Part shown: piece by piece, positions 7,069 through 61,085 of the stretch
Numbering within the stretch: position 1 is the stretch's first letter
Layout of the letters: every line of letters begins with the position of its first letter
NCBI GenBank assembly: GCA_041664925.1
Contig: JBAYJV010000001.1
Location: 56,121-120,120 of the forward strand
DNA from: Minisyncoccota bacterium
GTDB taxonomy: Bacteria > Patescibacteriota > Minisyncoccia > JBAYJV01
Reading direction: 5' to 3'
Length of the DNA stretch: 64,000 nucleotides
Made by a program: the position numbers and the translations under genes
The notes under the pieces: generated by a model
Told to the model about the DNA's origin: nothing
Seen by the model: the letters and a program-made list of their open reading frames with translations, nothing else
Database searches by the model: none

Positions 7069-7174
7069 AATAATAGATTTAATGGATTTAATGAATTAAT
7101 TAGTGGATAATGAATAATATAATGAACAATAATAATGATAAATGATAATCATTAATAATCAATAATCAATAGAA

Positions 7175-7804: not shown

Positions 7805-7832
7805 ATTATACCACATATTAATAAAAAATCAA
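7805..7832 (-). promoter_or_regulatory. Near-consensus sigma70 promoter (TTGATT-N17-TATAAT) driving 7368..7754
   Basis: Minus strand reads ttgattttttattaatatgtggtataat, then a ~45 nt leader, then AAAAGGAGG. Confidence 0.6.
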
Positions 7833-7927
7833 GCTTTTTGGGTTTGAACATCAAAAAATCACGGTTAATGTGACTTCTTAAATGAAACTTGTTTAATAAA
7901 ACAAGATTTTGCAACGCTATCAAAGAC

Positions 7928-8095
7928 ATATGTGGGAGGCTCAGCCTCCCACATATTTCAAAATCCCAGCGCCAGATATGGAAAATCGGAGGCTAAGCCT
8001 CCGATTTGAGTCTCCGATTTGGTTAAAATATTCAACGCAAATGTTCAACACTCGGTGTCTAATATCTAGTCGTTATCAGGCATTTGTTGATAACA
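7928..8095. repeat. Double-palindrome module, copy 1: pal1 at 7928-7956, pal2 at 7983-8007, plus a conserved AT-rich tail
   Basis: atatgtgggaggctcagcctcccacatat and aaatcggaggctaagcctccgattt are both perfect. The module is almost identical to the copy at 10476-10620 and continues into the shared spacer and promoter at 7805-7925. Confidence 0.7.
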
Positions 8096-9259: not shown

Positions 9260-9366
9260 ATTTTTTTATTTACTTTTGCCTTCATATTTTATCACAAAGT
9301 TTAAGTTTACGGATGTGCATAAATCCCTCCTTCGTCCCAGTAAACCGGGACTACGGACGGGCAAAG

Positions 9367-9401
9367 CAAAAAAAAGGGGTGCCACGCACCTGCGCGACAC
9401 C
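9367..9401 (-). terminator. Intrinsic terminator for 9423..9785
   Basis: 10-bp stem ggtgtcgcgc-aggt-gcgtggcacc followed by T8 on the minus strand. Confidence 0.65.
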
Positions 9402-9422
9402 CAGCTATTTACCTCTTTTCTC

Positions 9423-9785
9423 CTAGCAACTTCTGGTTCCAAATGCTCCCAGAGGAACCCGAGAAACATCGAACACTGGAACCCGTACTCTCTGACGGAC
9501 TCCCGACAACCTCGATCCTTCCTTGTCGTAGGCTTCTACCGGTTTCCACTTTCTCTCGAAAGCAACCGGCTCATGCGGAACTGGGATGATGGTGTCGGAC
9601 TGACCATGAAATGTAACGGTCAGCGGACATCCACATTCCAGACACTTGTCCGGAGGGAAATCAAAGCCCATGTGGGTCGGTACTTCGTGTCCGTTTTTGC
9701 AGAAGCGAACACTGTTTGTATCCCACGAGCCGAACCAATCGCCGATACGACTCGTTGTGACCATAGCTGTGGTAGCCATGACCAA
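9423..9785 (-). CDS. Hypothetical small protein (120 aa) with CxxxH...CxxC(x)C motifs, GC-rich island gene
   Basis: GGAGG sits 6 nt before the ATG. It has its own TTGATT-N17-TATAAT promoter and terminator. CKNGH...CLECGC suggests a zinc ribbon. Confidence 0.5.
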   Translation of the reverse strand: MVMATTAMVTTSRIGDWFGSWDTNSVRFCKNGHEVPTHMGFDFPPDKCLECGCPLTVTFHGQSDTIIPVPHEPVAFERKWKPVEAYDKEGSRLSGVRQRVRVPVFDVSRVPLGAFGTRSC

Positions 9786-9941: not shown

Positions 9942-10279
9942 TTACGAAATCTTGCGCAGAACCTCTTCGCTTGCAGAATGAGTAGCTTCGATGAACCAAC
10001 TAGACACGACTCCCAAATTAGACATTTCTGTTTCGAGAAGGCCTTCAAATACCACTAGATACGGAGTGAACGCTGGGCCAAGATTATAAGTCGTCACGGC
10101 AATTCTCAAGATATCGGCCTTTGAATCTCCACCCGTCTTCACGAGAATATACTCTTCAACGAAACCCCTGTAAAACAGGGCTAAAATTAGCTCGTTAAGA
10201 GCAATGTGAGGCAAAAGTTCGCGAACTTGTACAGGCCCACCCTCTTTCGTCCTATCTCTGTAGAAACTCACTTTTACCA
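9942..10279 (-). CDS. Hypothetical small protein (~112 aa from MVKVSFYRDR), GC-rich island gene
   Basis: AAGGAGG sits 7 nt before the ATG at 10279. The longer ORF start at 10343 has no SD. A terminator hairpin ggccgtcttcgcacacttgtacgagtacggcc plus T7 lies at ~9886-9925. A TTGATT-N17-TATAAT promoter lies at 10351-10379. Confidence 0.5.
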
Positions 10280-10350
10280 TTGCGCAACCTCCTTGGTTTT
10301 GAGATTGAATACTTCTATAATCAAAAAACCGCTTTTTGATCATCTACGTG

Positions 10351-10379
10351 GATTATATCATATTAAGATACAAAAATCA
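10351..10379 (-). promoter_or_regulatory. Near-consensus sigma70 promoter driving 9942..10279
   Basis: Minus strand reads ttgatttttgtatcttaatatgatataat. Confidence 0.6.
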
Positions 10380-10620
10380 AGCTTTTTGGGTTTGAACATC
10401 AAAAAATCACGATTAATGTGACTTCTTAAATGAAACTTGTTTAATAAAACAAGATTTTGCAACGCTATCAAAGACATATGTGGGAGGCTCAGCCTCCCAC
10501 ATATTTCAAAATCTCATCGCCAGATATGGAAAATCAGAGGTTTAGCCTCCGATTTGATGAAAATATTTAACGCAAATATTCAACACTCGGTGTCTAACGT
10601 CTAGGCATTATCAAGGATTA
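10380..10620. repeat. Double-palindrome module, copy 2: pal1 at 10476-10504, pal2 at 10532-10555 (2 mismatches)
   Basis: About 95% identical to 7836-8095 over ~250 bp, including the spacer hairpin cttgttttattaaacaag. Confidence 0.7.
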
Positions 10621-12951: not shown

Positions 12952-13401
12952 TTAAAAATATAACACTCCTATTTGCCCTAATCCCCATGCAACAAAATAC
13001 GCCCAAATTGCAAGTAAAATAACTCCTGTAATTATTGTAAGTAAAAGACTAATAAGAAATCTTTTTAAATTAAATTTTTTATATTTAATCCACGCAATTA
13101 TAAGCGGAGAAATGGTGAATATTAAATATAACCACAAAGTTTGATATAGCGTACCTTTTTCTAGCGATTCCATTAACCATCCTGAATTTCGGACATTATT
13201 GTATAAATGTCTATCATACCAATTACCCAATATCCAAATTCCCACAAATATTCCGATACTTAAAAGATAACTCAAAAAAATCCAGCGCCATTTTAAAAGT
13301 TTCGCTTTCCAGATAATAAAAAAAGGGCTTAAAATCAGCCCGATGGTTATAATCACATAGCCCCAAGTAATTAATTTTTCCGAAGCACTTCCTGTTGGCA
13401 T
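12952..13401 (-). CDS. Integral membrane protein (4 TM), hypothetical
   Basis: Four hydrophobic helices. Copy 3 of the double-palindrome module sits directly upstream. Confidence 0.45.
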   Translation of the reverse strand: MPTGSASEKLITWGYVIITIGLILSPFFIIWKAKLLKWRWIFLSYLLSIGIFVGIWILGNWYDRHLYNNVRNSGWLMESLEKGTLYQTLWLYLIFTISPLIIAWIKYKKFNLKRFLISLLLTIITGVILLAIWAYFVAWGLGQIGVLYF

Positions 13402-13486
13402 AATTTCACTAGTCTTTATTAATGCTATATTTTAATACAACATTATACCCAATTTTCCTCATCTTCTCCATTCCCCTTATCCACAG

Positions 13487-13625
13487 ACATATGTGGGAGG
13501 CTGAGCCTCCCACATATTTCAAAATCTCAGCGCCAGTTATAGTAAATCTGAGGCTAAGCCTCCGATTTAGTTCGATTTGATAGAAAATGTTAAACACTCG
13601 GTGTTGAACATTTTGTCTTGAAACA
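13487..13625. repeat. Double-palindrome module, copy 3: pal1 at 13489-13517, pal2 at 13545-13568
   Basis: atatgtgggaggctgagcctcccacatat is perfect. aaatctgaggctaagcctccgattt has 1 mismatch. The module is adjacent to a TGGGTATAAT -10-like element upstream of 12952..13401. Confidence 0.65.
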
Positions 13626-28566: not shown

Positions 28567-28600
28567 TCAAAAAAGGAGATTAGCGCGCTAACTAATCTCC
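28567..28600 (-). terminator. Strong intrinsic terminator ending micro-ORF module 1
   Basis: Minus strand reads ggagattagttagcgcgctaatctcc followed by TTTTTT. Confidence 0.7.
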
Positions 28601-28627
28601 CGTACTTTGCTTAAAAGAACTGCAAAC

Positions 28628-28660
28628 TTACATGTCGTCTTCTTCGGCCATTCTTTTCAT
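28628..28660 (-). CDS. Micro-ORF MKRMAEEDDM (10 aa)
   Basis: AAGGAGGcaaag ATG. Its paralogue at ~29533-29590 encodes MKRMAEEDNMRSRETDII. Confidence 0.35.
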   Translation of the reverse strand: MKRMAEEDDM

Positions 28661-28840
28661 CTTTGCCTCCTTAGAGACCAATAATCGTTGCTTTCCTCAT
28701 GCGCTCCTCCTTGATGCTTTTGATTACACTTTTAGAGAGATACTTTTCTCATTCTCATTTTTTTCCTCCTTGATACTAGAGTCCCGCCGGAAGTATTTTC
28801 ATTTCTCTTTTCTTAGGTTAAAACACCGATTTTTTTCATT

Positions 28841-28990
28841 TTATCCAATCCCTCCCGTTGACGAACATCCATCATCACTGTCATGTGGACCAGAACCATA
28901 TAGATGATTAACAAGACTCACTAATACTTCAGCAGCATCAGAGCTAACATATACTGGTTCCCCGCTGGAATCGTAGGGCCCGTTTGTCAT
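28841..28990 (-). CDS. Micro-ORF, 49 aa: MTNGPYDSSGEPVYVSSDAAEVLVSLVNHLYGSGPHDSDDGCSSTGGIG
   Basis: GAGGATGA lies upstream. It is the longest member and shares the GPxD/SG-rich character of its neighbours. Confidence 0.35.
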   Translation of the reverse strand: MTNGPYDSSGEPVYVSSDAAEVLVSLVNHLYGSGPHDSDDGCSSTGGIG

Positions 28991-29143
28991 AGCTAATCAT
29001 CCTCACCCGTCATTCCCTCGAGAGTGTTCTGTCCACCCTCGCCATCTCTCGGTCCGTTCACCATAGAACACCCCTACTCGCTGTCATCCGGACCACTGGT
29101 CCGATCGTCAGGTCCTCTGTTTTGCATTTTCTCTCCTTGTCGC

Positions 29144-29260
29144 CTATCCGCCGAAAGGAAAATCGTTCTTCATCCAAGAACTTTTGTTGCCACGCACGCC
29201 CCCATCCCTGGGTCCGCGCATCATCCCGTCATCGCCAAAACTCTTGCCGCCTCTTTTCAT
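29144..29260 (-). CDS. Micro-ORF, 38 aa: MKRGGKSFGDDGMMRGPRDGGVRGNKSSWMKNDFPFGG
   Basis: AAGGAGGaagaa ATG. Confidence 0.35.
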   Translation of the reverse strand: MKRGGKSFGDDGMMRGPRDGGVRGNKSSWMKNDFPFGG

Positions 29261-29270
29261 TTCTTCCTCC

Positions 29271-29372
29271 TTAATGCTTTTCGACTTCGTTGTATGCCTG
29301 ACTTATCGCAGTAAGTTGCGCTTTGGCAAAAGCCAAACCCTTCCGATTGTTTCTCTTGGTGCACCGACACAT
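29271..29372 (-). CDS. Micro-ORF, 33 aa: MCRCTKRNNRKGLAFAKAQLTAISQAYNEVEKH
   Basis: AAGGAGGtttct ATG. Basic peptide. Confidence 0.35.
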   Translation of the reverse strand: MCRCTKRNNRKGLAFAKAQLTAISQAYNEVEKH

Positions 29373-29495
29373 AGAAACCTCCTTAGTCCCGACTTTGTCT
29401 GCTTTTTTACTAAGCCATCTTCGCTATCATTTTTCCTCCTTGGACCCATACTCACTCTGTATAATTATATTACCACTATATTTAAAAAAGGCAAT

Positions 29496-29529
29496 ACAAA
29501 AAAGGAGATTAGCGCGCTGACTAATCTCC
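29496..29529 (-). terminator. Strong intrinsic terminator ending micro-ORF module 2. Same hairpin family as 28567-28600.
   Basis: Minus strand reads ggagattagtcagcgcgctaatctcc followed by TTTTTT. Confidence 0.7.
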
Positions 29530-29783
29530 TATGCTTTACTTAAAAGAACTGCAAACTATATGATATCCGTTTCGCGACTCCTCATATTGTCTTCTTCGGC
29601 CATTCTTTTCATCTTCGCCTCCCTAGAGAACCATTGCTCTTTTCATTTGCTCCTCCTTAAAGAGCAGTCTCGTACTAGCCAATTAATCGCCCGCTTTGAC
29701 GCTTCTTTGCGTTTTCACGGGGATCACCTCGCTCCTTTTGAAGTTTGGTTTACTTGACTCTACGAGCCTCTCCTTTCACCTCC

Positions 29784-36341: not shown

Positions 36342-36361
36342 TAACATTTGCCTGCCTGCCG
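36342..36361. repeat. 20-nt hairpin repeat cctgcctgccggtaggcagg (family member)
   Basis: Near-perfect palindrome. Other members lie at 36816-36835, 36880-36899, 39775-39793, 41410-41429, 57368-57387 and 61034-61054. Confidence 0.6.
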
Positions 36362-36470
36362 GTAGGCAGGAATTTAAATATTTAAATCCGAATGACCGAA
36401 ACTGTTTTAGATTTAGAATTTTTAGAATTAGATATTGTTTCGTATTTCGTACTTCGAATTTCGTGCTTAA

Positions 36471-36707
36471 TTAGTCTATCCCCAACAACTCCTTAATTCT
36501 TTCCTCATTAAAGCCAATTACAATTTCCCCTTCAATATCAATCACCGGCACTCCTAGTTGACCAGTCTTTTTTATCATTTCTTCTCTAGCCGCATCGTCT
36601 GAAGAAACATCTTTGGCTTCAAATTCAACATGACTGCTCTTTAAAAACTCCTTTACAATAACACAATACGGACAAGTCGGCGTCGAATAAACAATAACTT
36701 TTTTCAT
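36471..36707 (-). CDS. Glutaredoxin-like protein (CPYC)
   Basis: VIVYSTPTCPYCVIVKEFL. 78 aa. Confidence 0.7.
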   Translation of the reverse strand: MKKVIVYSTPTCPYCVIVKEFLKSSHVEFEAKDVSSDDAAREEMIKKTGQLGVPVIDIEGEIVIGFNEERIKELLGID

Positions 36708-36857
36708 TATAGTAAAATCTACAAATATATTCTATTCTAATCTTTTTTTATCCTTAAATCAAACCCCGTGATTTTACAATATTTATTTGCTTGCCCGTCC
36801 GTAGTCCCGGCATGCCCTGCCTACCGGCAGGCAGGATTGACCCGTTAAAACGAAATA

Positions 36858-36995
36858 AATATCCTCCTTCGTCCCTTGGCCTGCCTATCGGTAGACAGGG
36901 CTACGGAAGGATTATTGATTGCATATTTCTTCACTTCGTTCAGAAACGCAATCAATAAAAAAGAAGGGGGGTACCGCTCTGGTACCCCCTCTCGT
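36858..36995 (-). other. Composite 3' module of gene 37003..37653: terminator, then the 11-bp inverted repeat ttattgattgc...gcaatcaataa, then a structured motif AUCCUUCCGUAG-hairpin-CGAAGGAGGAU
   Basis: The same three-part arrangement occurs at 55811-55918 downstream of 55924..56232. Confidence 0.5.
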
Positions 36996-37002
36996 AAAAG
37001 CT

Positions 37003-37653
37003 CTACGCCTTTACGAGACGAACCTCGCCATCCTGCACTCGCAGGTGGCACTTTGCTTTCACGGCCACCGGCCCATCGCCGATTTTCTGGCCGTTCTCAT
37101 CCTTCAGCCATTCCATCGCTGGTCGAGGAGGCCGATTTTGCTCAATCACGCGAAGCGGCTTGCGCGCTTCACAGTTGATACTTAGTGAAGCGGCACCAGC
37201 AACCTCCTCTTCGTCTTTGAAGAACGGGTTTCGGAAAGCCCTGACGCGCCAGAGCGCTTCCCTGAAGATATTCCGCAGCTCTGCGTAGATCAGGTGCTTA
37301 ACCCGATCAAATCCCTCGTTCGCCTGAAGATCTTCTTGGCGAACGAAGACGAATCGCGCCATCCAGTAGAACTGACCTTTTTGCTTTCCATGCGGTCTCT
37401 TCTGACAGATCGCGCTTACAAGAGCGAACCCCGCTTCTTCCAGATCGCTGACGAATTGATCTAGAGAGCAATTCATGTCTTCGACCGGCTCGATGATCAT
37501 CGTGCCGTTCGCCCGAACCTTCCTTTCTACTCTCTCTTCGGGTTGCTCTTTCTCGTCAACGTCAATCCACTTTGGAAGGACATTGGGATTTGAGAAGCTA
37601 ACCTGAACCATGACCAACTTCACTGACCCATCAAGCAACGTTCCTGAAGACAC
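37003..37653 (-). CDS. Hypothetical protein (~216 aa from the GTG start), GC-rich island gene
   Basis: Perfect TTGACT-N17-TATAAT promoter at 37714-37741. AAGGAGG sits 5 nt before the GTG at 37653. Terminator gggggtaccagagcggtacccccc plus T-run. Confidence 0.45.
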   Translation of the reverse strand: MSSGTLLDGSVKLVMVQVSFSNPNVLPKWIDVDEKEQPEERVERKVRANGTMIIEPVEDMNCSLDQFVSDLEEAGFALVSAICQKRPHGKQKGQFYWMARFVFVRQEDLQANEGFDRVKHLIYAELRNIFREALWRVRAFRNPFFKDEEEVAGAASLSINCEARKPLRVIEQNRPPRPAMEWLKDENGQKIGDGPVAVKAKCHLRVQDGEVRLVKA

Positions 37654-37713
37654 TTGCGCCTCCTTGTGATGGCTTGTATGAAGAGAACTAGCTAACCTTC
37701 TTTTCACTATCCA

Positions 37714-37869: not shown

Positions 37870-38436
37870 TTAAAATCTTAGCTTGTCTAAGATTTTATTC
37901 ATGTCTTCGTCTTTTTTTGGATCAATTCTGACATAATCATCATTGTCGTGGGGCAAATTGGTGATTGCTAAAACTTCGGCTTTTTTGTCAGTCAAAGGAT
38001 AGAAAACATGATAAACGCCTTGGGGCACTAAAATTTGTGCCATTGATTCTGGAAGAAAATAACCATCGACATCTTGAATATTAATATTTTCGTCTTTTTC
38101 TCCAGCTAAAACAGTAAAGGTTTTTCCTTTTGTTTTTGAATCATCCCTAAAATCCTTAAATATCCAAAGACAAGTCCCGGACAGAGTATAAAAATGTTCT
38201 ATAAGTTTATGATGATAGTGACCGCCACGAGCGACACCTTTTTGGGTAGCGGTAGAGCTATAAACATTCCCAATTTTTCCGTTTATTAACTCATTATCGT
38301 TTCCACCCGGCGCAATTTCATACAAATAACCGCGCTCATCCCCAACAACTTTGTTGAGCTTTATCACTAGACCATCAATATTAGTATAAATAATATTCAT
38401 TAAAATCCGAAGCACGAAATCAGAAATCCGAAACAA
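37870..38436 (-). CDS. Cupin-fold sugar nucleotide epimerase/isomerase (RmlC/FdtA-like)
   Basis: ARGGHYHH motif and cupin length. Adjacent to rmlB. Confidence 0.5.
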   Translation of the reverse strand: MFRISDFVLRILMNIIYTNIDGLVIKLNKVVGDERGYLYEIAPGGNDNELINGKIGNVYSSTATQKGVARGGHYHHKLIEHFYTLSGTCLWIFKDFRDDSKTKGKTFTVLAGEKDENINIQDVDGYFLPESMAQILVPQGVYHVFYPLTDKKAEVLAITNLPHDNDDYVRIDPKKDEDMNKILDKLRF

Positions 38437-38535
38437 TATTTAATTTTCAAAATCATAAATTCAAAACTGTTTCGATCATTTGGATTTAAATATTTGAATT
38501 TGTTTCGAATTTCGAAATTCGAATTTCGAGTTTAA
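38401..38535. repeat. ~130-bp AT-rich element with inverted ends (cgaaatcagaaatccgaaacaa ... ttgtttcgaatttcg)
   Basis: Related copies at 47521-47650 and 60915-61085. Half copies at 36395-36470 and 46325-46400. Confidence 0.55.
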
Positions 38536-38539
38536 AAAT

Positions 38540-39733: not shown

Positions 39734-39812
39734 TTATTGAAAATTTTAAATTATGAATTCTTCCAAAATTTTGCCCGCCTACCGGCAGGCAGGCATTTTG
39801 CACTTTTAATTT

Positions 39813-41338: not shown

Positions 41339-41448
41339 AAATATCGTCCTCCTTTAGATTATCTTAGCGAACAAGGTGAGCTTTAGATAATTTTAAGTCC
41401 TGCCGAAGTCCTGCCTGACGGCAGGCAGGCTTAACGAAGGCGGACAAT

Positions 41449-42709: not shown

Positions 42710-43858
42710 TTAGCTTGTGATCCATCGCTCCATCTCTTTTGCTCCTACTTTTTTACTTTTCATAATTATCTTCCTCTGTCTAAAGGCCTTTGGTATTTGC
42801 TTTAATAAATCGGGAATGATTTTAAAAATTTTTCTTTCAAATAAAACAACATATCCCCAAGAACGAATTTCTTTCCAAAAAATTAATGGAAAATCTTTTA
42901 TATAAGAACTTAAAATTTCATTTTTAATTTGCATTAATCTCTGGTTTTTGAAAGAGATTTTTTTGGCAAATAAAGAAATGCCTTTTCGCTCTTTAAGAAT
43001 TTCCAAACTTTTTTTTGAAGCGCTTTCTCCCGCTCCTCTCTCGTGATAAGCCAAAACGCTGGGAGCATAAATCGCTTTCCATCCGTATAATCTCAGACGC
43101 CATGCTAAATCAACATCTTCTTTATAGGCAAAAAACGATTCATCGAAGAATTCGCATAGTTCTTCTTTTTGATCTGCCATGGGCAGAGAAAAATTAGAAG
43201 AACTTGCGCCCTCCGTAGCCTTGCGCGAAGGAGGGCTTATTCTTTTATTATTGAAAATTAGAAGCCTCGTGTCTTCCAGCGCACTCCTTCGATAAACTGG
43301 AACGGCGCCATCTGCTCCAAAAATTTCTTCCTGCTTATCAAATTGACCATCGTCTCTCTGTCCCTGGCCGCGATTTAAAATTCGCCTATTTTTAAGCATT
43401 AAAAGTCCGGTCGTATCAAAAATATTTTTGGGCTGATTGGCTTTAAAATCATATTTTAAAACTTTGGGTTGGAGCGCCGCAATCTTTTTATCTTTTTCTA
43501 AAATCTTAATCGCTTCGCTTAAAAAACTAGGAGACAAAATCGCATCTTGATTTAAAAGCATCACATATTCGCCATCGGTTAATTTTATGCCTTGATTATG
43601 TCCGGCCGCAAAACCAACATTTTCTTTATTTTGAATAAAACTGATTTTCTTATGTTTTTCTCTTTTCGCTTTTCGCTTTTCGCTGTCAAAATAATTCTCG
43701 ATTATTTTGACTGTCTTATCGCTTGAATTATTATCAATAATCAAAACTTCGTAATTCGAATAGTCCTGAGCCAAAGCCGAATCTAGACATGGCTTTAAGT
43801 ACTTTTCGCCATTCCAAGTCAATATATTGACATTAATTTTTGGATACATATAGCACAA
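42710..43858 (-). CDS. Glycosyltransferase family 2
   Basis: EVLIIDNNSSDKTV and an ED-containing catalytic region. Confidence 0.7.
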   Translation of the reverse strand: MCYMYPKINVNILTWNGEKYLKPCLDSALAQDYSNYEVLIIDNNSSDKTVKIIENYFDSEKRKAKREKHKKISFIQNKENVGFAAGHNQGIKLTDGEYVMLLNQDAILSPSFLSEAIKILEKDKKIAALQPKVLKYDFKANQPKNIFDTTGLLMLKNRRILNRGQGQRDDGQFDKQEEIFGADGAVPVYRRSALEDTRLLIFNNKRISPPSRKATEGASSSNFSLPMADQKEELCEFFDESFFAYKEDVDLAWRLRLYGWKAIYAPSVLAYHERGAGESASKKSLEILKERKGISLFAKKISFKNQRLMQIKNEILSSYIKDFPLIFWKEIRSWGYVVLFERKIFKIIPDLLKQIPKAFRQRKIIMKSKKVGAKEMERWITS

Positions 43859-44194
43859 ATTATTCTCTGTAAAATTCTTGGCAAAGAAATCATTAGAAGT
43901 TAAAAGTGTAAAGTGAAAAATGAAAAATCACAATGTAAAATTGAAAATTTTAAATTTTAGATTGTTGTTTTTATCTTTTCGTTTTTAGTTTTTCGCTATT
44001 AATGATCGCAACTTCACAATTAAAATCCAACTGTCATCCTGACCCTGTACCGTACGGTGCAGGGGAAGGATCTCGAGAACTTGTCCTGAGCTTGTCGAAG
44101 GATTCTTCACTCCGTTCAGAATGACAGATATTCTAACTATTTGTAACTATTTACGTCTTTATACGCATAAATTCGTATTTTGACACCAAAACTA

Positions 44195-44255: not shown

Positions 44256-44684
44256 GTGACAGACAGCGACGAGAAGATTCCAGTAGAGGCAACTCTGGTT
44301 GTCAAAAGGGGTGGCGAGACTCACACCATCGGCATCACCGACGAGTTGTACATGTGCGAGATCCTTGAGGACCTCAGAACGGCTAAGGATCCCGCTGCGC
44401 ATCTCGCGAACTTCATCGAAGAGGAGATGGGCAAGCGTCCACGGCGACAGTCTGCTTCAGAAGAAGACTGTCGCGAATGGCCAGATGGATTCATGTCTGG
44501 AGATAGAGTAACATGGTGTCGGCCAGAAAATCATCGAACAAAAGCTCTTGTGGTGTCTTGGCCCAGAAAAGAGGTCCCTGATGGGAAAGTGCCCGTCAGA
44601 ATCAATCTGGGAAAGCCGGATGAAGATTCATTGGAGTTCGCCGATCCGAAAGACCTAACCCAAGGCGGACCAGCCTGGCCCTAG
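44256..44684 (+). CDS. Hypothetical protein (142 aa; GTG start), GC-rich island gene
   Basis: AAGGAGG sits 5 nt before the GTG. Terminator gaccgcccag...ttgggtggtc plus T-run at ~44719-44760. Confidence 0.45.
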   Translation: MTDSDEKIPVEATLVVKRGGETHTIGITDELYMCEILEDLRTAKDPAAHLANFIEEEMGKRPRRQSASEEDCREWPDGFMSGDRVTWCRPENHRTKALVVSWPRKEVPDGKVPVRINLGKPDEDSLEFADPKDLTQGGPAWP

Positions 44685-46317: not shown

Positions 46318-46352
46318 CTTATTTTAGAAATGCTAATTTTTGATATTTGAAT

Positions 46353-47519
46353 TTAAATATTTTGATTTGTTTCGCATTTCGATATTCGAATTTCTGATTT
46401 TAAAAAACCTATGGTTTTTTCGGCGCATTCTTTCCATGAAAATTCTTGCGCTTTTTTTAAACCTTGTTCTTTTGTCTGATTATAGGTTTTTTTGTTTTCA
46501 ATTGCTATTTTCATTGCTCCTTCAATTTGTTTTGAATCTTGCGGATCGTCAACCCAAAAACAGCCATCACCCAAAACCTCTTTAAAAACTTGGGCATTGC
46601 CGCAAATAACTGGCGTGTCACAACTTGCTGATTCTAAAAGTGGCAAGCCAAAACCCTCATATAAGGAAAGGTAAATTGTTGCATTTGCTCCTCCGTAAAG
46701 AATTAGCATTTCTTCGCTTGAAACAAAATTTGGAAAATAAATAATCGCTTGTCTTTCTAATTTCTGATTTGTTTTCTTTGCCAACATTTCAATATCTTGT
46801 TTTGATGTTAAGTCTTTGCCAATAATCAAATATTGAAAATCATAATGTTGTTTTGCGATTTTCTCAAAAGCCAAAATTGACTCTCGAACATATCGCCTAT
46901 CAAAAATTGCTGCCACAAAAAGAAAGTAATTTTTCTTTATGCCATATTTTTCTTTGGTAAATTTTAGCGCTTTATCATTAATGACTGGTTTAAAAATTTC
47001 ATCAGATGCCAAAGGTGTAACATTAATTTTTTTTGAATCAATTTTATAAAATTTAATTATTTCGCGCTTGGTAAATTCTGATGGCGCAAAAATTAAATTT
47101 GCTTTTTTTGCTGATTTTTTTCCAATCCACTTAACGAGAATTTTATCTAAAATACGAAAGTTAAACAATTCTGGATGTGCTTCATAAATTATATCATGAA
47201 TTGTCAGCGCTGTTTTTCCTTTATAAAAAAGCGGGAGAAAATATGACGGCGAGAACAATAAATCAACTTGATCTATTTTCGCCTGAAACGGCAAAAGAAT
47301 GTGCTGAAAAAGAGCAGTGCTTGAGCCCAAAAACGACTTTAAGATTTTAATCTTGAAATTATCAGACTTTGGTAATTTTCCAGCCGTTTCTTTATCTCTA
47401 ATATATAGTATAAAATCAATTTCTTTTTCGTTTTTAAAAAAACTCAAAAGATTGAGCACATAACGCTCAATTCCTTTTTGATCTCTAATATGATGACAAT
47501 CAAGACCGATAGTTATCAT
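46353..47519 (-). CDS. Glycosyltransferase family 4 (GT-B)
   Basis: C-terminal EGFGLPLLESASCDTPVICGN. Confidence 0.7.
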   Translation of the reverse strand: MITIGLDCHHIRDQKGIERYVLNLLSFFKNEKEIDFILYIRDKETAGKLPKSDNFKIKILKSFLGSSTALFQHILLPFQAKIDQVDLLFSPSYFLPLFYKGKTALTIHDIIYEAHPELFNFRILDKILVKWIGKKSAKKANLIFAPSEFTKREIIKFYKIDSKKINVTPLASDEIFKPVINDKALKFTKEKYGIKKNYFLFVAAIFDRRYVRESILAFEKIAKQHYDFQYLIIGKDLTSKQDIEMLAKKTNQKLERQAIIYFPNFVSSEEMLILYGGANATIYLSLYEGFGLPLLESASCDTPVICGNAQVFKEVLGDGCFWVDDPQDSKQIEGAMKIAIENKKTYNQTKEQGLKKAQEFSWKECAEKTIGFLKSEIRISKCETNQNI

Positions 47520-47603
47520 AAAGTTCGAAATTCGAATATCGAAACTCGAAACAATATTTAATTTTCAAAATTCTAAATTCAAAACAGTTTTAGTTATTTG
47601 GAT

Positions 47604-48599
47604 TTAGATATTTGAATTTGTTTCGAATTTCGGATTTCGTGCTTCTGATTTAAAATTTATTTTTCCAGTTTTTTTTCTCCAAAAATCCCACGTAGCTTTA
47701 AAAATAGGGTTTATCCATTTTCTTTTTTCAGGAATAAATATCTTGGGAAATTGCTTAAATAATTTATAAATTGAATAAAAAACGGCAAAAGTTTTTTGAA
47801 AAAAATTCCCATTCCACCACGCCAAATAATATCCATTTCTTACTAAATAATAAATATAATTAAATGAAAGATATTCAGTTGAATGGTAGCCTTTATGATA
47901 AATCACGGAGTCAGGCACGATGACATGGACGAATCCTTTCTTGAATGCCCTTACCGCCCAATCAGAATCTTCATAATATAAAAAGTAATCTTCGCGCATC
48001 AATCCAATTTCATTTAGAACACTTTTGCTTACTAATAAAGCAGTACCAGTAATATAATCTGTTAAAAATGGTTTCGTTTTACCAAGATTTTCTTTTAACT
48101 TTCCATGATCTCTCAGCTCTGCTTGAAGCAGATTGCACTTAATGTAGCCGCCATTTGAATAAATCGTTTTTTTGTCTTCGTAAAAAATTCTTGATCCCAA
48201 AAAGCCAATTTTTTTAGCCTTTAATTCTGAATAATTTTGACTATTTTCTGAAACCTCAATTAATTTTGAAAGAAAATCTTTTTCAACTTTTGTGTCCGGG
48301 TTTAAAAGCAAAAAATAATCAGCGCCCATTTTTTGTGCTTCACGAATTCCCAAGTTGCACCCGCCAGCAAAACCTAAATTTTTAGTAGATTTTATGATCT
48401 GCGTTACGGGTCTCGAGTCTTGGGTTTCGAGTTTTTCCAAAAAATCCGAGATTCTTTGGAGCGAATCATTGGATGATCCATTTTCAACAACAAAAACATT
48501 GAAATTAGAATAATCTAACTTCAAAAGGCTTTTGAGGCAACCTATTGTCTCTTCAAAGCCGTTGTAGTTAACTATAATGATAGAAACTTTGGGAAGCAT
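47604..48599 (-). CDS. Glycosyltransferase family 2
   Basis: VSIIIVNYNGFEETIGCLKSL and DxD-type motifs. Confidence 0.7.
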   Translation of the reverse strand: MLPKVSIIIVNYNGFEETIGCLKSLLKLDYSNFNVFVVENGSSNDSLQRISDFLEKLETQDSRPVTQIIKSTKNLGFAGGCNLGIREAQKMGADYFLLLNPDTKVEKDFLSKLIEVSENSQNYSELKAKKIGFLGSRIFYEDKKTIYSNGGYIKCNLLQAELRDHGKLKENLGKTKPFLTDYITGTALLVSKSVLNEIGLMREDYFLYYEDSDWAVRAFKKGFVHVIVPDSVIYHKGYHSTEYLSFNYIYYLVRNGYYLAWWNGNFFQKTFAVFYSIYKLFKQFPKIFIPEKRKWINPIFKATWDFWRKKTGKINFKSEARNPKFETNSNI

Positions 48600-50079: not shown

Positions 50080-50095
50080 AAGTGCCTAAGCACTT
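50080..50095 (-). promoter_or_regulatory. DGR-associated hairpin directly after VR-A: 6-bp stem aagtgc/gcactt with loop ctaa
   Basis: Same hairpin at 52852-52868 after VR-B. Absent after the TR. Confidence 0.5.
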
Positions 50096-50760
50096 TAGTC
50101 GCAGAGGCACAACAGGCAACAATCGTAACCCCAGCCGCGAACGAAACAATCGAGGTTGAAGACCCAACCGCCATCCAGGCGCTGATTCACGCGCGGCACA
50201 CGGTGAGCGCCAGTTTCGTCTTTCCAGCAAGCTTCTTTCTCGTCAAGAGAAATAACCCACTTGCCTTTAGGGAATTTCTCTTTCGCCTGTTCATAGACAA
50301 CAGACAGCCCCTGAGCTCCAACAAGATATGCTCCCTGCGATTTCATGAAAGCCAATCCATCAGGAGAAGAAATCGGCGGTTTCCTGATCAAGAAGATCTT
50401 GGCTACATAGGTTTTGCCAGGAATGAGTCGATGAGTTGGATTCGCGAAGTTATCATTAGTGATTTTCTCGTTGAAATAGTTAAATTCACCGCGATGATTA
50501 TTCGCAAACAAGGCAAGCTGTGTGCTATGACTGTAGTCCAGAGGCACCTTCACCAAGAAAGTGCTCCATAGGGCAAAGCGATCATCTGGAACAGCGCCTT
50601 GGAGCAAAGCTCTCTTCAGGACCTCGTTAAGATCACCTTGACTTTTGCTCCATGCTTCTGCTGTTGCTTGCTCGATCTCGCCAGGTCGCGGCAATTGCCG
50701 AATGACACTGGCCAGAAACTCCACCCACCATCCTGAAACCTCTGGGGCTGTTCTGCTCAT
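50095..50760 (-). CDS. DGR target protein A. The C-terminal ~40 codons form variable region VR-A at ~50098-50213.
   Basis: The C-terminal 75 aa are nearly identical to target B. VR-A differs from the TR almost only at TR adenine positions. SD AAAGGAGGG before the ATG at 50760. Confidence 0.7.
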   Translation of the reverse strand: MSRTAPEVSGWWVEFLASVIRQLPRPGEIEQATAEAWSKSQGDLNEVLKRALLQGAVPDDRFALWSTFLVKVPLDYSHSTQLALFANNHRGEFNYFNEKITNDNFANPTHRLIPGKTYVAKIFLIRKPPISSPDGLAFMKSQGAYLVGAQGLSVVYEQAKEKFPKGKWVISLDEKEACWKDETGAHRVPRVNQRLDGGWVFNLDCFVRGWGYDCCLLCLCD

Positions 50761-51023
50761 AGCAGTTGTTCCCTCCTTTTCCAACTCTCTTGGCAAGCAT
50801 TGCGAGCCCTAGAGAGTTGTGATCCCGGATTGCCGGGACTTCTTTTGGCTATTAGATAGGCCGCCAAATGCCTTGCTCCCCACAACGAGAAGCGCAAAAG
50901 GCATTAAAATTAACGCTCTTTGCGCTTATTACTGTATTCATCTTTATCACGAAGAAACTACTTTCTTTCATTCTATCACACTTCAATAAAAAAATCAAGC
51001 GATTAACTTATTTTTAGAAATTA

Positions 51024-52868: not shown

Positions 52869-53516
52869 TTAGTCGCAGAGGCACAACAGGCAATAACTGC
52901 AATTCCAGCCGCCCCCGAAATAATCGAGGTTGAAGCGCCAACCGCCAACCAGGCACTGAACCATGAACGGCACACGGGGAAAGCCAGAGGCGTCTTTCCA
53001 GCAAGCGTCTTTCTCGTCAAGAGAAATAACCCACTTGCCTTTAGGGAATTTCTCTTTCGCCTGTTTATAGACAACAGACAGTCCTTGAGCTCCAACAAGA
53101 ATTGCCCTATGTTGTCTCAGAACTGCCAAATTATCTTCCGAAGAAACAACTGATCCGGAAGTAATTCCAATCAGTTTTACAGTGTAAACCTTTCCCGGAA
53201 TCAGCTTTGTAGTAACGCCAGCAAAATGTTCGTCTGTAATATCATTGTTATAGAAGACAAAATCGCTACCATGCATGCGCTTGAATTTGGCAAGCTGAGT
53301 GGCATGGCCATAGTCATCAGGCACCTTAAATGTAAAAGTGCTCATGACAAAATATCGAGGATCTATGGTTCTTAAAAACCTTTCTCTTCCTTCTTTTGTC
53401 AAACCATTAAACCACTCCCATTGTTCAAGAGTGATTTGTCCTTGCCGCGCTTTCTGTAGCGTGTCAACTAGCAGACCAGCCATTTTGGCCGCTTCTGCGC
53501 CGATGACGATTGTCAT
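52869..53516 (-). CDS. DGR target protein B. VR-B at ~52873-52994.
   Basis: C-terminus GAQGLSVVYKQAKEKFPKGKWVISLDEKDACWKD...CLLCLCD. An adenine-specific TR/VR mismatch pattern. SD AAAAAAGGAG before the ATG. The 5' flank is shared with target A. Confidence 0.7.
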   Translation of the reverse strand: MTIVIGAEAAKMAGLLVDTLQKARQGQITLEQWEWFNGLTKEGRERFLRTIDPRYFVMSTFTFKVPDDYGHATQLAKFKRMHGSDFVFYNNDITDEHFAGVTTKLIPGKVYTVKLIGITSGSVVSSEDNLAVLRQHRAILVGAQGLSVVYKQAKEKFPKGKWVISLDEKDACWKDASGFPRVPFMVQCLVGGWRFNLDYFGGGWNCSYCLLCLCD

Positions 53517-55751: not shown

Positions 55752-55810
55752 AATTTAGTTTTAGATAATATTCATATTCTATACAAATAATATCTTTTGT
55801 CAAGAAAAAA

Positions 55811-55918
55811 AGTCCTCCTTCGCCCTAACAGGCTACGGCGGGATTATTGATTGCATAATCTTCATTTTGTTCAGAAATGCAATCAATAAAAAAACCCGCC
55901 TTTTTCTTTTGGCGGGCA
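55811..55918 (-). other. Second copy of the composite 3' module: terminator, then the inverted repeat ttattgattgca...tgcaatcaataa, then a structured motif
   Basis: Downstream of 55924..56232. Collinear with 36858-36995. Confidence 0.5.
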
Positions 55919-56232: not shown

Positions 56233-56371
56233 ACTCTGCCTCCTTTGATCGCTTTGATGTACTAATTATAAGTTACTATTTGAAACATGCATCCTCCTTC
56301 GTTCTGGCTCGCCAGAACTACGGGAGGATACAAGAAAGCGTAAATTCTTTTATCATTAACGCTTTCTAGTA

Positions 56372-60914: not shown

Positions 60915-61085
60915 TTTGACTAAAATTCGAAGCACGAAATCAGAAATACGAAACAAATTCAAAATTCTAATAATTAATTTTAAAAACTGTTTAGAATTTA
61001 ATATTTTTGAATTTAAATATTGTTTCGAATTTCCCTGCCTGACGGCAGTCAGGGATATTCGAATTTCGAATTTGATTGCGTACTT
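60915..61085. repeat. ~130-bp inverted-end element, copy 3, carrying an embedded CCTGCC..GGCAGG-family hairpin at 61034-61054
   Basis: aaaattcgaagcacgaaatcagaaatacgaaacaa ... ttgtttcgaatttccctgcctgacggcagtcagggatattcgaatttcg. Confidence 0.55.

Follow-up and report, generated by a model that had tools for sequence, protein, structure and literature searches.

A short hairpin motif that recurs in a 64,000-nucleotide stretch of a Minisyncoccota bacterium genome (assembly GCA_041664925.1, contig JBAYJV010000001.1, positions 56,121 to 120,120; the whole stretch is called the window) is probably a piece of repetitive, mobile DNA. It is best described as a likely non-autonomous palindromic family, similar to repetitive extragenic palindromes (REPs) and tagged by the tetranucleotide GTAG, whose members would be gained and lost, sit in frame in genes and be common to many phyla and phages. 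An earlier note on the window had described four minus-strand sites and proposed an RNA element tied to GC-rich island genes, placed in their 3' region or leader and carrying a protein-binding loop of the loop-E type. The hairpin motif itself is real and occurs far above chance. The evidence does not bear out a loop-E regulatory RNA that serves the GC-rich island genes.

The pattern CCGTAG-N(4-34)-CGAAGG matches the window five times, against 0.04 matches expected from shuffles, and none of 100 shuffles reaches five. The pattern CGAAGGAGG also has five matches (0.44 expected). All four minus-strand sites share the architecture described in the earlier note: a C-rich 5' arm, GUA-G, a free hairpin, C-GAA and GGAGG(R). 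Copy 1 lies at 9325-9366 (-) and reads CTTTG-CCCGTCC-GTA-G-[TCCCGG TTTA CTGGGA]-C-GAA-GGAGGG, with a covariance model score of 19.1 bits; its start directly abuts the T-run of a terminator at 9377-9402. The copy had been placed at 9335-9375, a span shifted by about 10 nt that cuts off the 3' arm. Copy 2 (36861-36912, (-), ATCCTTC-CGTA-G-[28-nt inner hairpin]-C-GAA-GGAGGAT) is found between a terminator at 36967-36989 and a promoter-like site at 36762-36734, and its 28-nt inner hairpin is similar to a CCTGCC..GGCAGG hairpin module. Copy 3 (55812-55844, (-), ATCCCGCC-GTA-G-[CCTG TTAG GG]-C-GAA-GGAGGAC) is located between the terminator of a 102-aa gene and the promoter of the next gene (11/12 match, 55803-55776; -35 box at 55803). 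Copy 4 (56291-56334, (-), CTTG-TATCCTCC-CGTA-G-[TTCTGG CGAG CCAGAA]-C-GAA-GGAGGAT; fold z-score -6.65) lies 38 nt after tRNA-Trp, upstream of the 102-aa open reading frame (ORF). Copies 1-3 thus sit behind intrinsic terminators, and two of these, copies 2 and 3, also precede the next promoter. Behind the GGAGG of their 3' arm, copies 1 and 4 have, at a distance of 4-5 nt, an ATG that opens an ORF of 8-12 codons.

The number of copies is not limited to four. A fifth one, missed by the earlier note, is found on the plus strand at 43203-43236 (CTTG-CG-CCCTCC-GTA-G-[CCTTGCG]-C-GAA-GGAGGG-C) and is the top match to the family covariance model (28.1 bits, E 7.5e-05). It lies antisense and in frame inside a family 2 glycosyltransferase (GT2) ORF at 42710-43858(-), where it encodes the peptide SPPSRKATEGA in a hypervariable loop.

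In silico folding returned the proposed structure for every copy: an outer helix, a 3x3 or 4x3 internal loop and an inner hairpin, with minimum free energies of -12.3 to -27.3 kcal/mol and z-scores of -1.1 to -6.7. The complementary strands of copies 1, 4 and 5, which are the ones tested, fold nearly as stably. The outer stem is common to the five copies, while the apical hairpins range from 7 to 28 nt and are unrelated in sequence; the inner hairpin is variable, as had been suggested, free in sequence and paired throughout. Compensatory changes in the outer helix, also suggested, are not visible among the window copies. All four sites of the earlier note have GGAGG as the 3' arm, and substitutions on the 5' side result in G.G, G.A or C.A mismatches or U.G wobbles; only the outermost pairs differ on both sides. 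Genuine outer-helix covariation emerged only after copies from other genomes were added. A scan of the window at Rfam gathering thresholds detected four tRNAs and no family for the motif, and a scan of the surroundings of copies 2-4 at E<=10 found no relevant family.

Copies outside the window were collected in four scans: two patterns in viral contigs, one in a collection with one genome per species and one in metagenome contigs. In viral contigs the pattern CCGTAG-N-CGAAGGAGGR gave mostly chance matches, with about one in ten clearly the motif, carrying a 6-nt apical mini-hairpin; the exact 18-mer CCGTAGCCTTGGCGAAGG was present at 41 viral loci. The species-level scan, with a pattern fitting all five window copies, found at least 120 loci, most of which were judged real. 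Among the matches listed, most have CCC(T/G)CC arms and a paired apical hairpin, and GC content ranges from 0.33 to 0.73. Their sources are Patescibacteria (Parcubacteria, Saccharimonadia, Roizmanbacteria and others), Bacteroidota (including the isolates Flagellimonas and Muriicola), Verrucomicrobiota, Lentisphaerota, Omnitrophota, Nitrospirota, Acidobacteriota, Chloroflexota, Myxococcota and others. In metagenome contigs the fixed core CCGTAGCTTTAGCGAAGG was matched at no fewer than 120 loci, and nearly all of those listed have paired outer arms.

The consensus of 160 copies (core fixed, arms free) is C(T/C)TG-(C/T)CC(G/T)CC-GTA-G-C-YTTR-G-C-GAA-GG(C/A)GG(G/A). Conservation spans positions -8 to +22 around the core and composition is random beyond, which defines a discrete unit of about 34 nt or longer. 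Its GUA/GAA internal loop hardly varies and is closed by C-G and G-C pairs. The unpaired 5' CYTG is conserved without a pairing partner (C in 103, T in 86, T in 97 and G in 115 of the 160 copies). In the sample with free arms GGCGG is as frequent in the 3' arm as GGAGG. Most frequently the apical part reads C-UUUA-G, C-CUUG-G or C-UUCA-G; otherwise it may be a nested CCTGCCCGCC..GGCGGGCAGG hairpin or any hairpin that pairs well. In copy 2 and at loci L132 and L205 the apical variation resembles a nested insertion of another hairpin. A T-run follows copy 3 and the flavobacterial copies L151 and L195, but neither a general T-run nor a conserved 3' context was found among the 160 copies.

A covariance model was built from an alignment of 125 sequences. 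It recovers all five window copies, as well as CCTGCCTGCC-GGTA-GGCAGG hairpins that have the same stem and are located 3' of other genes. Over 100 loci the model matched 133 copies, eight of them in a single 14-kb viral locus (L030); L215, L276, L294 and L387 also carry several copies. Copies outside the window are arranged as six inverted pairs, all with their 5' ends facing and none in the reverse order, as ten direct pairs, and also as tandem arrays. All five window copies have GTAG, and the second position among the 133 matches is T in 121, A in nine and G in two, with GAAG and GGAG variants included. Since the search patterns fixed GTAG, its conservation is overestimated.

Both stems covary. 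For the four free outer pairs of the 125-sequence alignment, 115 double-sided cells were counted against 49.2±6.4 in shuffles, and none of 500 shuffles reached this number. The outer-pair cells are 92.9% paired, and sliding the partner lowers this to 54% or less. The pair types counted include G-C 52 / U-A 45 and C-G 53 / U-A 39, and the outer-arm variants CCGCC/GGCGG, CCUCC/GGAGG and CCCCC/GGGGG are all present. Inner hairpins of unrelated sequence also remain paired (180 Watson-Crick, 18 G.U, 8 A.C and 9 other). The stems are therefore under constraint, although covariation in a hairpin is not by itself proof of an RNA function. G.U pairs outnumber A.C pairs by 30 to 19 in the outer helix and 18 to 8 in the inner one, which indicates at most a weak preference for the GTAG strand. 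The earlier note had set its proposal against a single repeat family lacking compensatory changes; a single large repeat family is what was found, and compensatory changes are present in it.

The position of the copies relative to genes speaks against an RNA that serves particular genes. Loci with a GC content of 0.5 or less hold about 100 copies, of which 33 (about one-third) are within long ORFs, 21 antisense and 12 sense. The gene ends flanking copies in these loci are 62 stops and 48 starts, in both orientations, and the neighbours of intergenic copies occur in every orientation. The orientation of copies relative to genes is near random. Intragenic copies were detected in a class I aminoacyl-tRNA synthetase of the ValRS type (L138) and an HsdM-type N6 methylase (L136), in both cases within the Pfam domain, and also in UvrA (L174), ribonucleotide reductase (RNR; L125), a GT1 glycosyltransferase (L123), a TraG-like ATPase (L183) and two phage proteins (L030). 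The peptide encoded by most of them is (P)SFAKAT(E/A)G. The GTAG strand falls on the C-rich strand 80 times and on the other 49 times; as a replication-strand bias this was set aside, being confounded with gene orientation and opposite to the pattern in the window.

Related contigs differ in the presence of the motif. Contigs encoding an identical L33 protein are of two types: one (L244) resembles the window, but five others (L241, L242, L243, L245 and L246) lack the 102-aa gene, copy 4, copy 3 and the palindrome that accompanies it. The terminator and the downstream promoter are retained in these five, and the empty site of L241 is without any copy. The GT2 loop that houses copy 5 is likewise absent in the shortest homologues, while elsewhere it holds other peptides derived from repeats (SEVRSSKFEIRN, PTGRQA, AQGGPASGWQ), and an alignment of the GT2 DNA places copy 5 in a lineage-specific insert. 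GT2 residues ~205-240 (window 42710-43846(-); proteins P0002-P0008 and P0020) form a surface loop that is a hot spot of repeat insertion: depending on the lineage, its peptides come from AT-rich TTCGAAATTCGAA-type repeats, from CCTGCC..GGCAGG hairpins (PTGRQA) or from other GC-rich modules. No offset was enriched for flanking direct repeats in 158 copies, so no target-site duplication of fixed length was detected. Copy 5 is surrounded by an 11-nt direct repeat, TTCTAATTTTC. This is not clear evidence of a target-site duplication, because a different duplication corresponds to it in the homologue without the motif.

A REP-like family would account for these features as follows. The unit would insert into unrelated DNA, namely intergenic gaps, often just past terminators, and tolerant protein loops, where it would be kept in frame. 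A trans-acting Y1/HUH enzyme of the RAYT (REP-associated tyrosine transposase) or IS200-IS605 type would recognise the hairpin in single-stranded DNA, with the GTAG at its foot as the guide and recognition tetranucleotide and the CT of the conserved 5' CYTG as the cleavage dinucleotide. Stem conservation would result from recognition of the folded DNA strand, or from palindrome-maintaining repair, and not from an RNA function; whatever transcribed copies do at the RNA level (forming a stable hairpin or sequestering GGAGG, for instance) would be a by-product. Such mobilisation of a folded single strand is proposed tentatively, from the layout of GTAG, hairpin and CT and from the missing target-site duplications. 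The lack of a fixed duplication fits Y1/HUH transposition and not miniature inverted-repeat transposable elements (MITEs) of the DDE type, whose terminal inverted repeats come with a duplication of fixed length that the same 158 copies do not show.

Classical REPs carry GTAG as an unpaired tag at their end, and each family has its own stem sequence. TnpA-REP requires a GTAG guide, a hairpin on single-stranded DNA and a CT cut 5' or 3' of the REP, and one studied REP (from Marinomonas) has a TTTA loop (PMC8266576). GTAG at the hairpin foot, stem subfamilies with complementary changes, dimers and clusters are all known REP features, as are intragenic copies in repair genes such as uvrA; in the GTAG-1 and GTAG-2 families, among those named GTAG-1 to GTAG-24 by Di Nocera et al. 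2013, a conserved 3-bp motif stands on the side of the stem-loop opposite GTAG (PMC3733652). The window motif is similar in most of these respects: it is a palindrome of 20-40 nt with GTAG at the 5' foot of the hairpin and a conserved CT nearby, it has a short motif (GAA) opposite GTAG, its stems show compensatory variants with some G.T pairs, and it leaves no target-site duplication. As in GTAG REPs and their dimers (REPINs), copies are mostly intergenic and 3' of genes, and some are in frame (uvrA included). Inverted dimers and clusters, a possible further likeness, occur in other genomes; within the window the only inverted arrangement is a half copy near copy 2. In contrast to REPs, the motif core is present in many phyla, in the candidate phyla radiation (CPR) and in viral contigs; a REP family, by comparison, does not usually extend beyond one genus or family. 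The peptides encoded by the motif, (P)SFAKAT(E/A)G among them, are not among the intragenic REP peptides listed in the supplement of PMC3733652. A search of the literature consulted for the core sequences of the motif gave no match.

Rickettsia palindromic elements (RPEs) are a second precedent. They also sit between genes and in frame in conserved genes, adding a short peptide in tolerant loops. However, RPEs are roughly 100-150 bp or CGTC-tagged and are found in Rickettsia only, unlike the ~34-nt, GTAG-tagged and cross-phylum motif.

Several points weigh against the REP-like interpretation. No Y1/RAYT gene flanked by the motif was found by phmmer and a hidden Markov model made from E. coli RayT among 16,767 ORFs from ~400 loci and the window (which has no RAYT-like ORF at all), though such a gene could lie elsewhere in the genomes. 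Three RAYT-like ORFs were detected in this search; those of L336 and L359 are flanked by other hairpins, and that of L240 is on a fragment of 512 nt and itself contains the motif. The GTAG of the motif is not a free tag; an extra, conserved outer stem of 6 bp surrounds it, and within a single genome the five copies have different apical hairpins. A near-identical core over more than eight phyla is unusual for REP families and could reflect a universal ligand instead. The GUA/GAA loop with its flanking Watson-Crick pairs is a plausible RNA S-turn, and G.U is in slight excess over A.C. Finally, the scan patterns fixed part of the sequence, so core invariance partly reflects how the copies were found, and the data cover 64 kb of the source genome and loci of 4-15 kb elsewhere, from which per-genome copy numbers are extrapolated.

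The units at L336 4200-5300 and L359 10740-11500 resemble REPtrons or TIRtrons, with a RAYT-like Y1 gene flanked by its own hairpins (dimers of GTAGCCGGCATCGGTGATGCCGGC in L336, TTACCGAGCCCTCCCYTCGGTAA in L359). As both are in motif-bearing contigs, Y1 enzymes and the motif co-occur in some organisms. An association with RAYT through E. coli rayT queries was rejected, since the matches belong to other REPs.

The points about the loop lead to the alternative that the motif is a structured RNA module, a loop-E or sarcin-ricin-like S-turn hairpin that would act when transcribed (as a protein site, by stabilising against RNase or by sequestering a Shine-Dalgarno sequence) and would have spread via a universal RNA-binding partner. 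This is unlikely. The nearly invariant loop, the covariation of both stems, the stable folds of the minus-strand RNA and the short ORFs behind GGAGG in copies 1 and 4 all fit such a module. On the other hand, copies are near-randomly oriented to genes, about one-third of them are intragenic and mostly antisense, copies 2 and 3 fall in the gap from a terminator to the promoter that follows, the complementary strand folds nearly as well, no Rfam family matches and copies are missing in related strains. GGCGG is as frequent as GGAGG in the 3' arm, so the Shine-Dalgarno likeness is not a family feature; sequestration or a leader peptide was rejected for this and because ATG follows only copies 1 and 4. 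The version tied to GC-rich island genes fares no better, with terminators before copies 1-3, copy 5 antisense in a coding region, only a slight excess of G.U and strains of identical L33 lacking copies 3 and 4. The sarcin-ricin loop has the sequence AGUACGAGAGGACC. The motif is like it in opposing GUA to GAA between two Watson-Crick helices, and minimal copies with a 2-bp stem and a tetraloop have the outline of helix 95 of 23S rRNA, but the motif has C in place of the 5' A of AGUA, its loop is free and not GAGA, and it shows no strand or transcription logic; the likeness is one of sequence and secondary structure. On inspection, the loop is not a K-turn, as tandem G.A/A.G pairs beside a 3-nt bulge are absent in either orientation. 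A degenerate 5S rRNA and mimicry of the 16S rRNA 3' end were also rejected, there being only short string likeness and no Rfam match.

The position of copies 1-3 directly after terminators, together with the T-runs behind copy 3, L151 and L195, could instead point to a DNA hairpin adopted by the host and kept by selection, no longer mobile, as the site of a nucleoid, replication or repair protein or as part of a terminator or insulator. The CCTGCC..GGCAGG hairpins with the same stem found 3' of genes in the window agree with this, and REPs and bacterial interspersed mosaic elements (BIMEs) binding host proteins such as IHF are reported in the part of the literature consulted. The 160 copies as a whole have no general T-run or 3' context, many are in coding regions, and their presence differs among close relatives, which makes this explanation rather improbable. 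Even less can be said for a recombination site bounding mobile gene cassettes, similar to the integron attC, which is highly improbable. Copies 4 and 3, in direct orientation, stand on either side of the 102-aa gene, and the block made up of copy 4, gene, terminator, inverted repeat and copy 3 is missing as a whole in the L241-type contigs. Like attC, the motif combines conserved outer arms and an unpaired centre with an apical structure of variable length, in what would be a folded single-strand site. However, this is a single case, other GC-rich genes have one copy or none, and the empty site in L241 retains no copy. The attC core GTTRRRY is absent from all copies, as are extrahelical bases at attC positions; intragenic and tandem copies are not cassette boundaries, and no recombinase or integrase was matched among the ORFs tested near copies. 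TIGR-Tas arrays were rejected too, since the motif repeats are identical and without spacers.

Other repeats occur near the copies. A companion palindrome, TTATTGATTGCG-[TTTCTGAACGAAGTGAAGAAATA]-TGCAATCAATAA, lies at 36913-36958 (-) between the terminator and copy 2, and its second occurrence at 55845-55889 (-) is between the terminator and copy 3; the latter is the one missing in the L241-type relatives. The inverted repeat TTATTGATTGCR...TGCAATCAATAA and terminator noticed earlier beside copies 2 and 3 are thus present, but they are 5' of the motif on its own strand and do not follow it. The inverted half copy CCCGTCCGTAGTCCC at 36794-36808 (+) matches the 5' half of copy 1 exactly, lies some 55 nt away from copy 2 and lacks the closing CGAAGG. 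Next to it, at 36810-36837 (-), is a CCTGCCTGCC-GGTA-GGCAGG hairpin whose stem sequence is the same as that of the motif. Similar hairpins are also found 3' of genes at 41404-41431, 39768-39795 and 36349-36376, and they may be simpler relatives of the motif or terminators. The site at 44040, taken earlier for a degenerate relative, does share the string TTCTGAACRRARTGAAGA (at 44104-44121) with the surroundings of copies 2 and 3. It is nevertheless a separate MITE-like element of ~95 nt (44040-44135, (-)) with its own terminal inverted repeat, GTCATTCTGA..TCAGGATGAC, and has only the TTCTGAACGGAGTGAAGA module in common with the palindromes beside copies 2 and 3.

The first GC-rich island is bracketed by 186-nt direct repeats (7824-8009, 10372-10557 and 13385-13570; the first two 97% identical), each holding a 34-nt perfect hairpin, ACATATGTGGGAGGCTCAGCCTCCCACATATTTC; the hairpins are at 7165, 7918, 10466 and 13479. 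Upstream of genes, low-complexity AT-rich repeats (TTTCGAATTTCGAAATTCGAATTTCG, TTAGAATTTAGAAGTTAGA) recur in the intergenic DNA at 36405-36472, 38400-38537, 46337-46404, 47519-47655 and 60921-61057. In metagenome locus L276 (1300-2260) a version richer in GC, GTTCGAAGTTCGACGTTCGATG, makes up long tandem arrays, with which the motif is interleaved. In L285 (1-200), four identical 32-nt tandem units (CATTCCGTAGCTTTAGCGAAGGATTGTCCAGC) directly adjoin the 3' end of a tRNA gene on the opposite strand. The minus strand of 28640-29600 (~900 nt, GC 0.46) has no ORF of 60 aa or more and is flanked by terminator repeats of 92% identity (28568-28628 and 29497-29557). It contains about ten tiny ORFs of 6-40 codons, each after a perfect AAGGAGG at a spacing of 5-8 nt, and the first and last peptides are paralogous (MKRMAEEDNM.../MKRMAEEDDM*), so this region could be a small-peptide operon.

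The GC-rich genes (~45-53%) are orphans in a genome of 37% GC and are located at 9423-9779(-), 9942-10280(-), 37003-37707(-), 44256-44684(+), 50095-50796(-) and 52869-53516(-). Searches of their proteins against Pfam, NCBIfam and PHROG gave no match. The genes at 50095-50796 and 52869-53516 are paralogous (82% identity over 279 nt). Three GC-rich genes followed by copies 1 and 2 also carry their own terminator at the end. Most of the orphans are preceded by TTGAyTTTT...TATGnTATAAT, though the region upstream of 53516 did not align; the upstream module that they share amounts to a near-consensus promoter.

For the window, the result removes one candidate riboregulator. To our knowledge, REP families and RAYT transposases have been studied almost entirely in Proteobacteria, with each family usually confined to a genus. 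It is possible, though doubtful, that the motif represents an undescribed cross-phylum superfamily of a structured mobile hairpin, carried by phages, with the nearly invariant core CC-GUA-G...C-GAA-GG and no linked RAYT. If true, this would imply either a new route of mobilisation (by a different HUH enzyme, by an enzyme that phages encode or by hairpin insertion linked to replication) or a host ligand of universal occurrence for loop-E-like hairpins in DNA or RNA, and it would mean that essential genes (ValRS-type synthetase, UvrA, RNR) are colonised in frame even in CPR genomes of roughly 1 Mb. An RNA or host-factor role of the conserved GUA/GAA core is possible and would be the more novel outcome. 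If one core is indeed shared across phyla (CPR, Bacteroidota, the Planctomycetes-Verrucomicrobia-Chlamydiae (PVC) group, Acidobacteriota, Nitrospirota, Chloroflexota and viral contigs), it would offer a handle on how tiny palindromes cross phyla and would raise the questions of what recognises them and how proteins tolerate in-frame copies. In the annotations of metagenome-assembled genomes, it would also account for a class of peculiar peptides ((P)SFAKAT(E/A)G, RRSFSEGG, VALAKE) and for small ORFs that are spurious.

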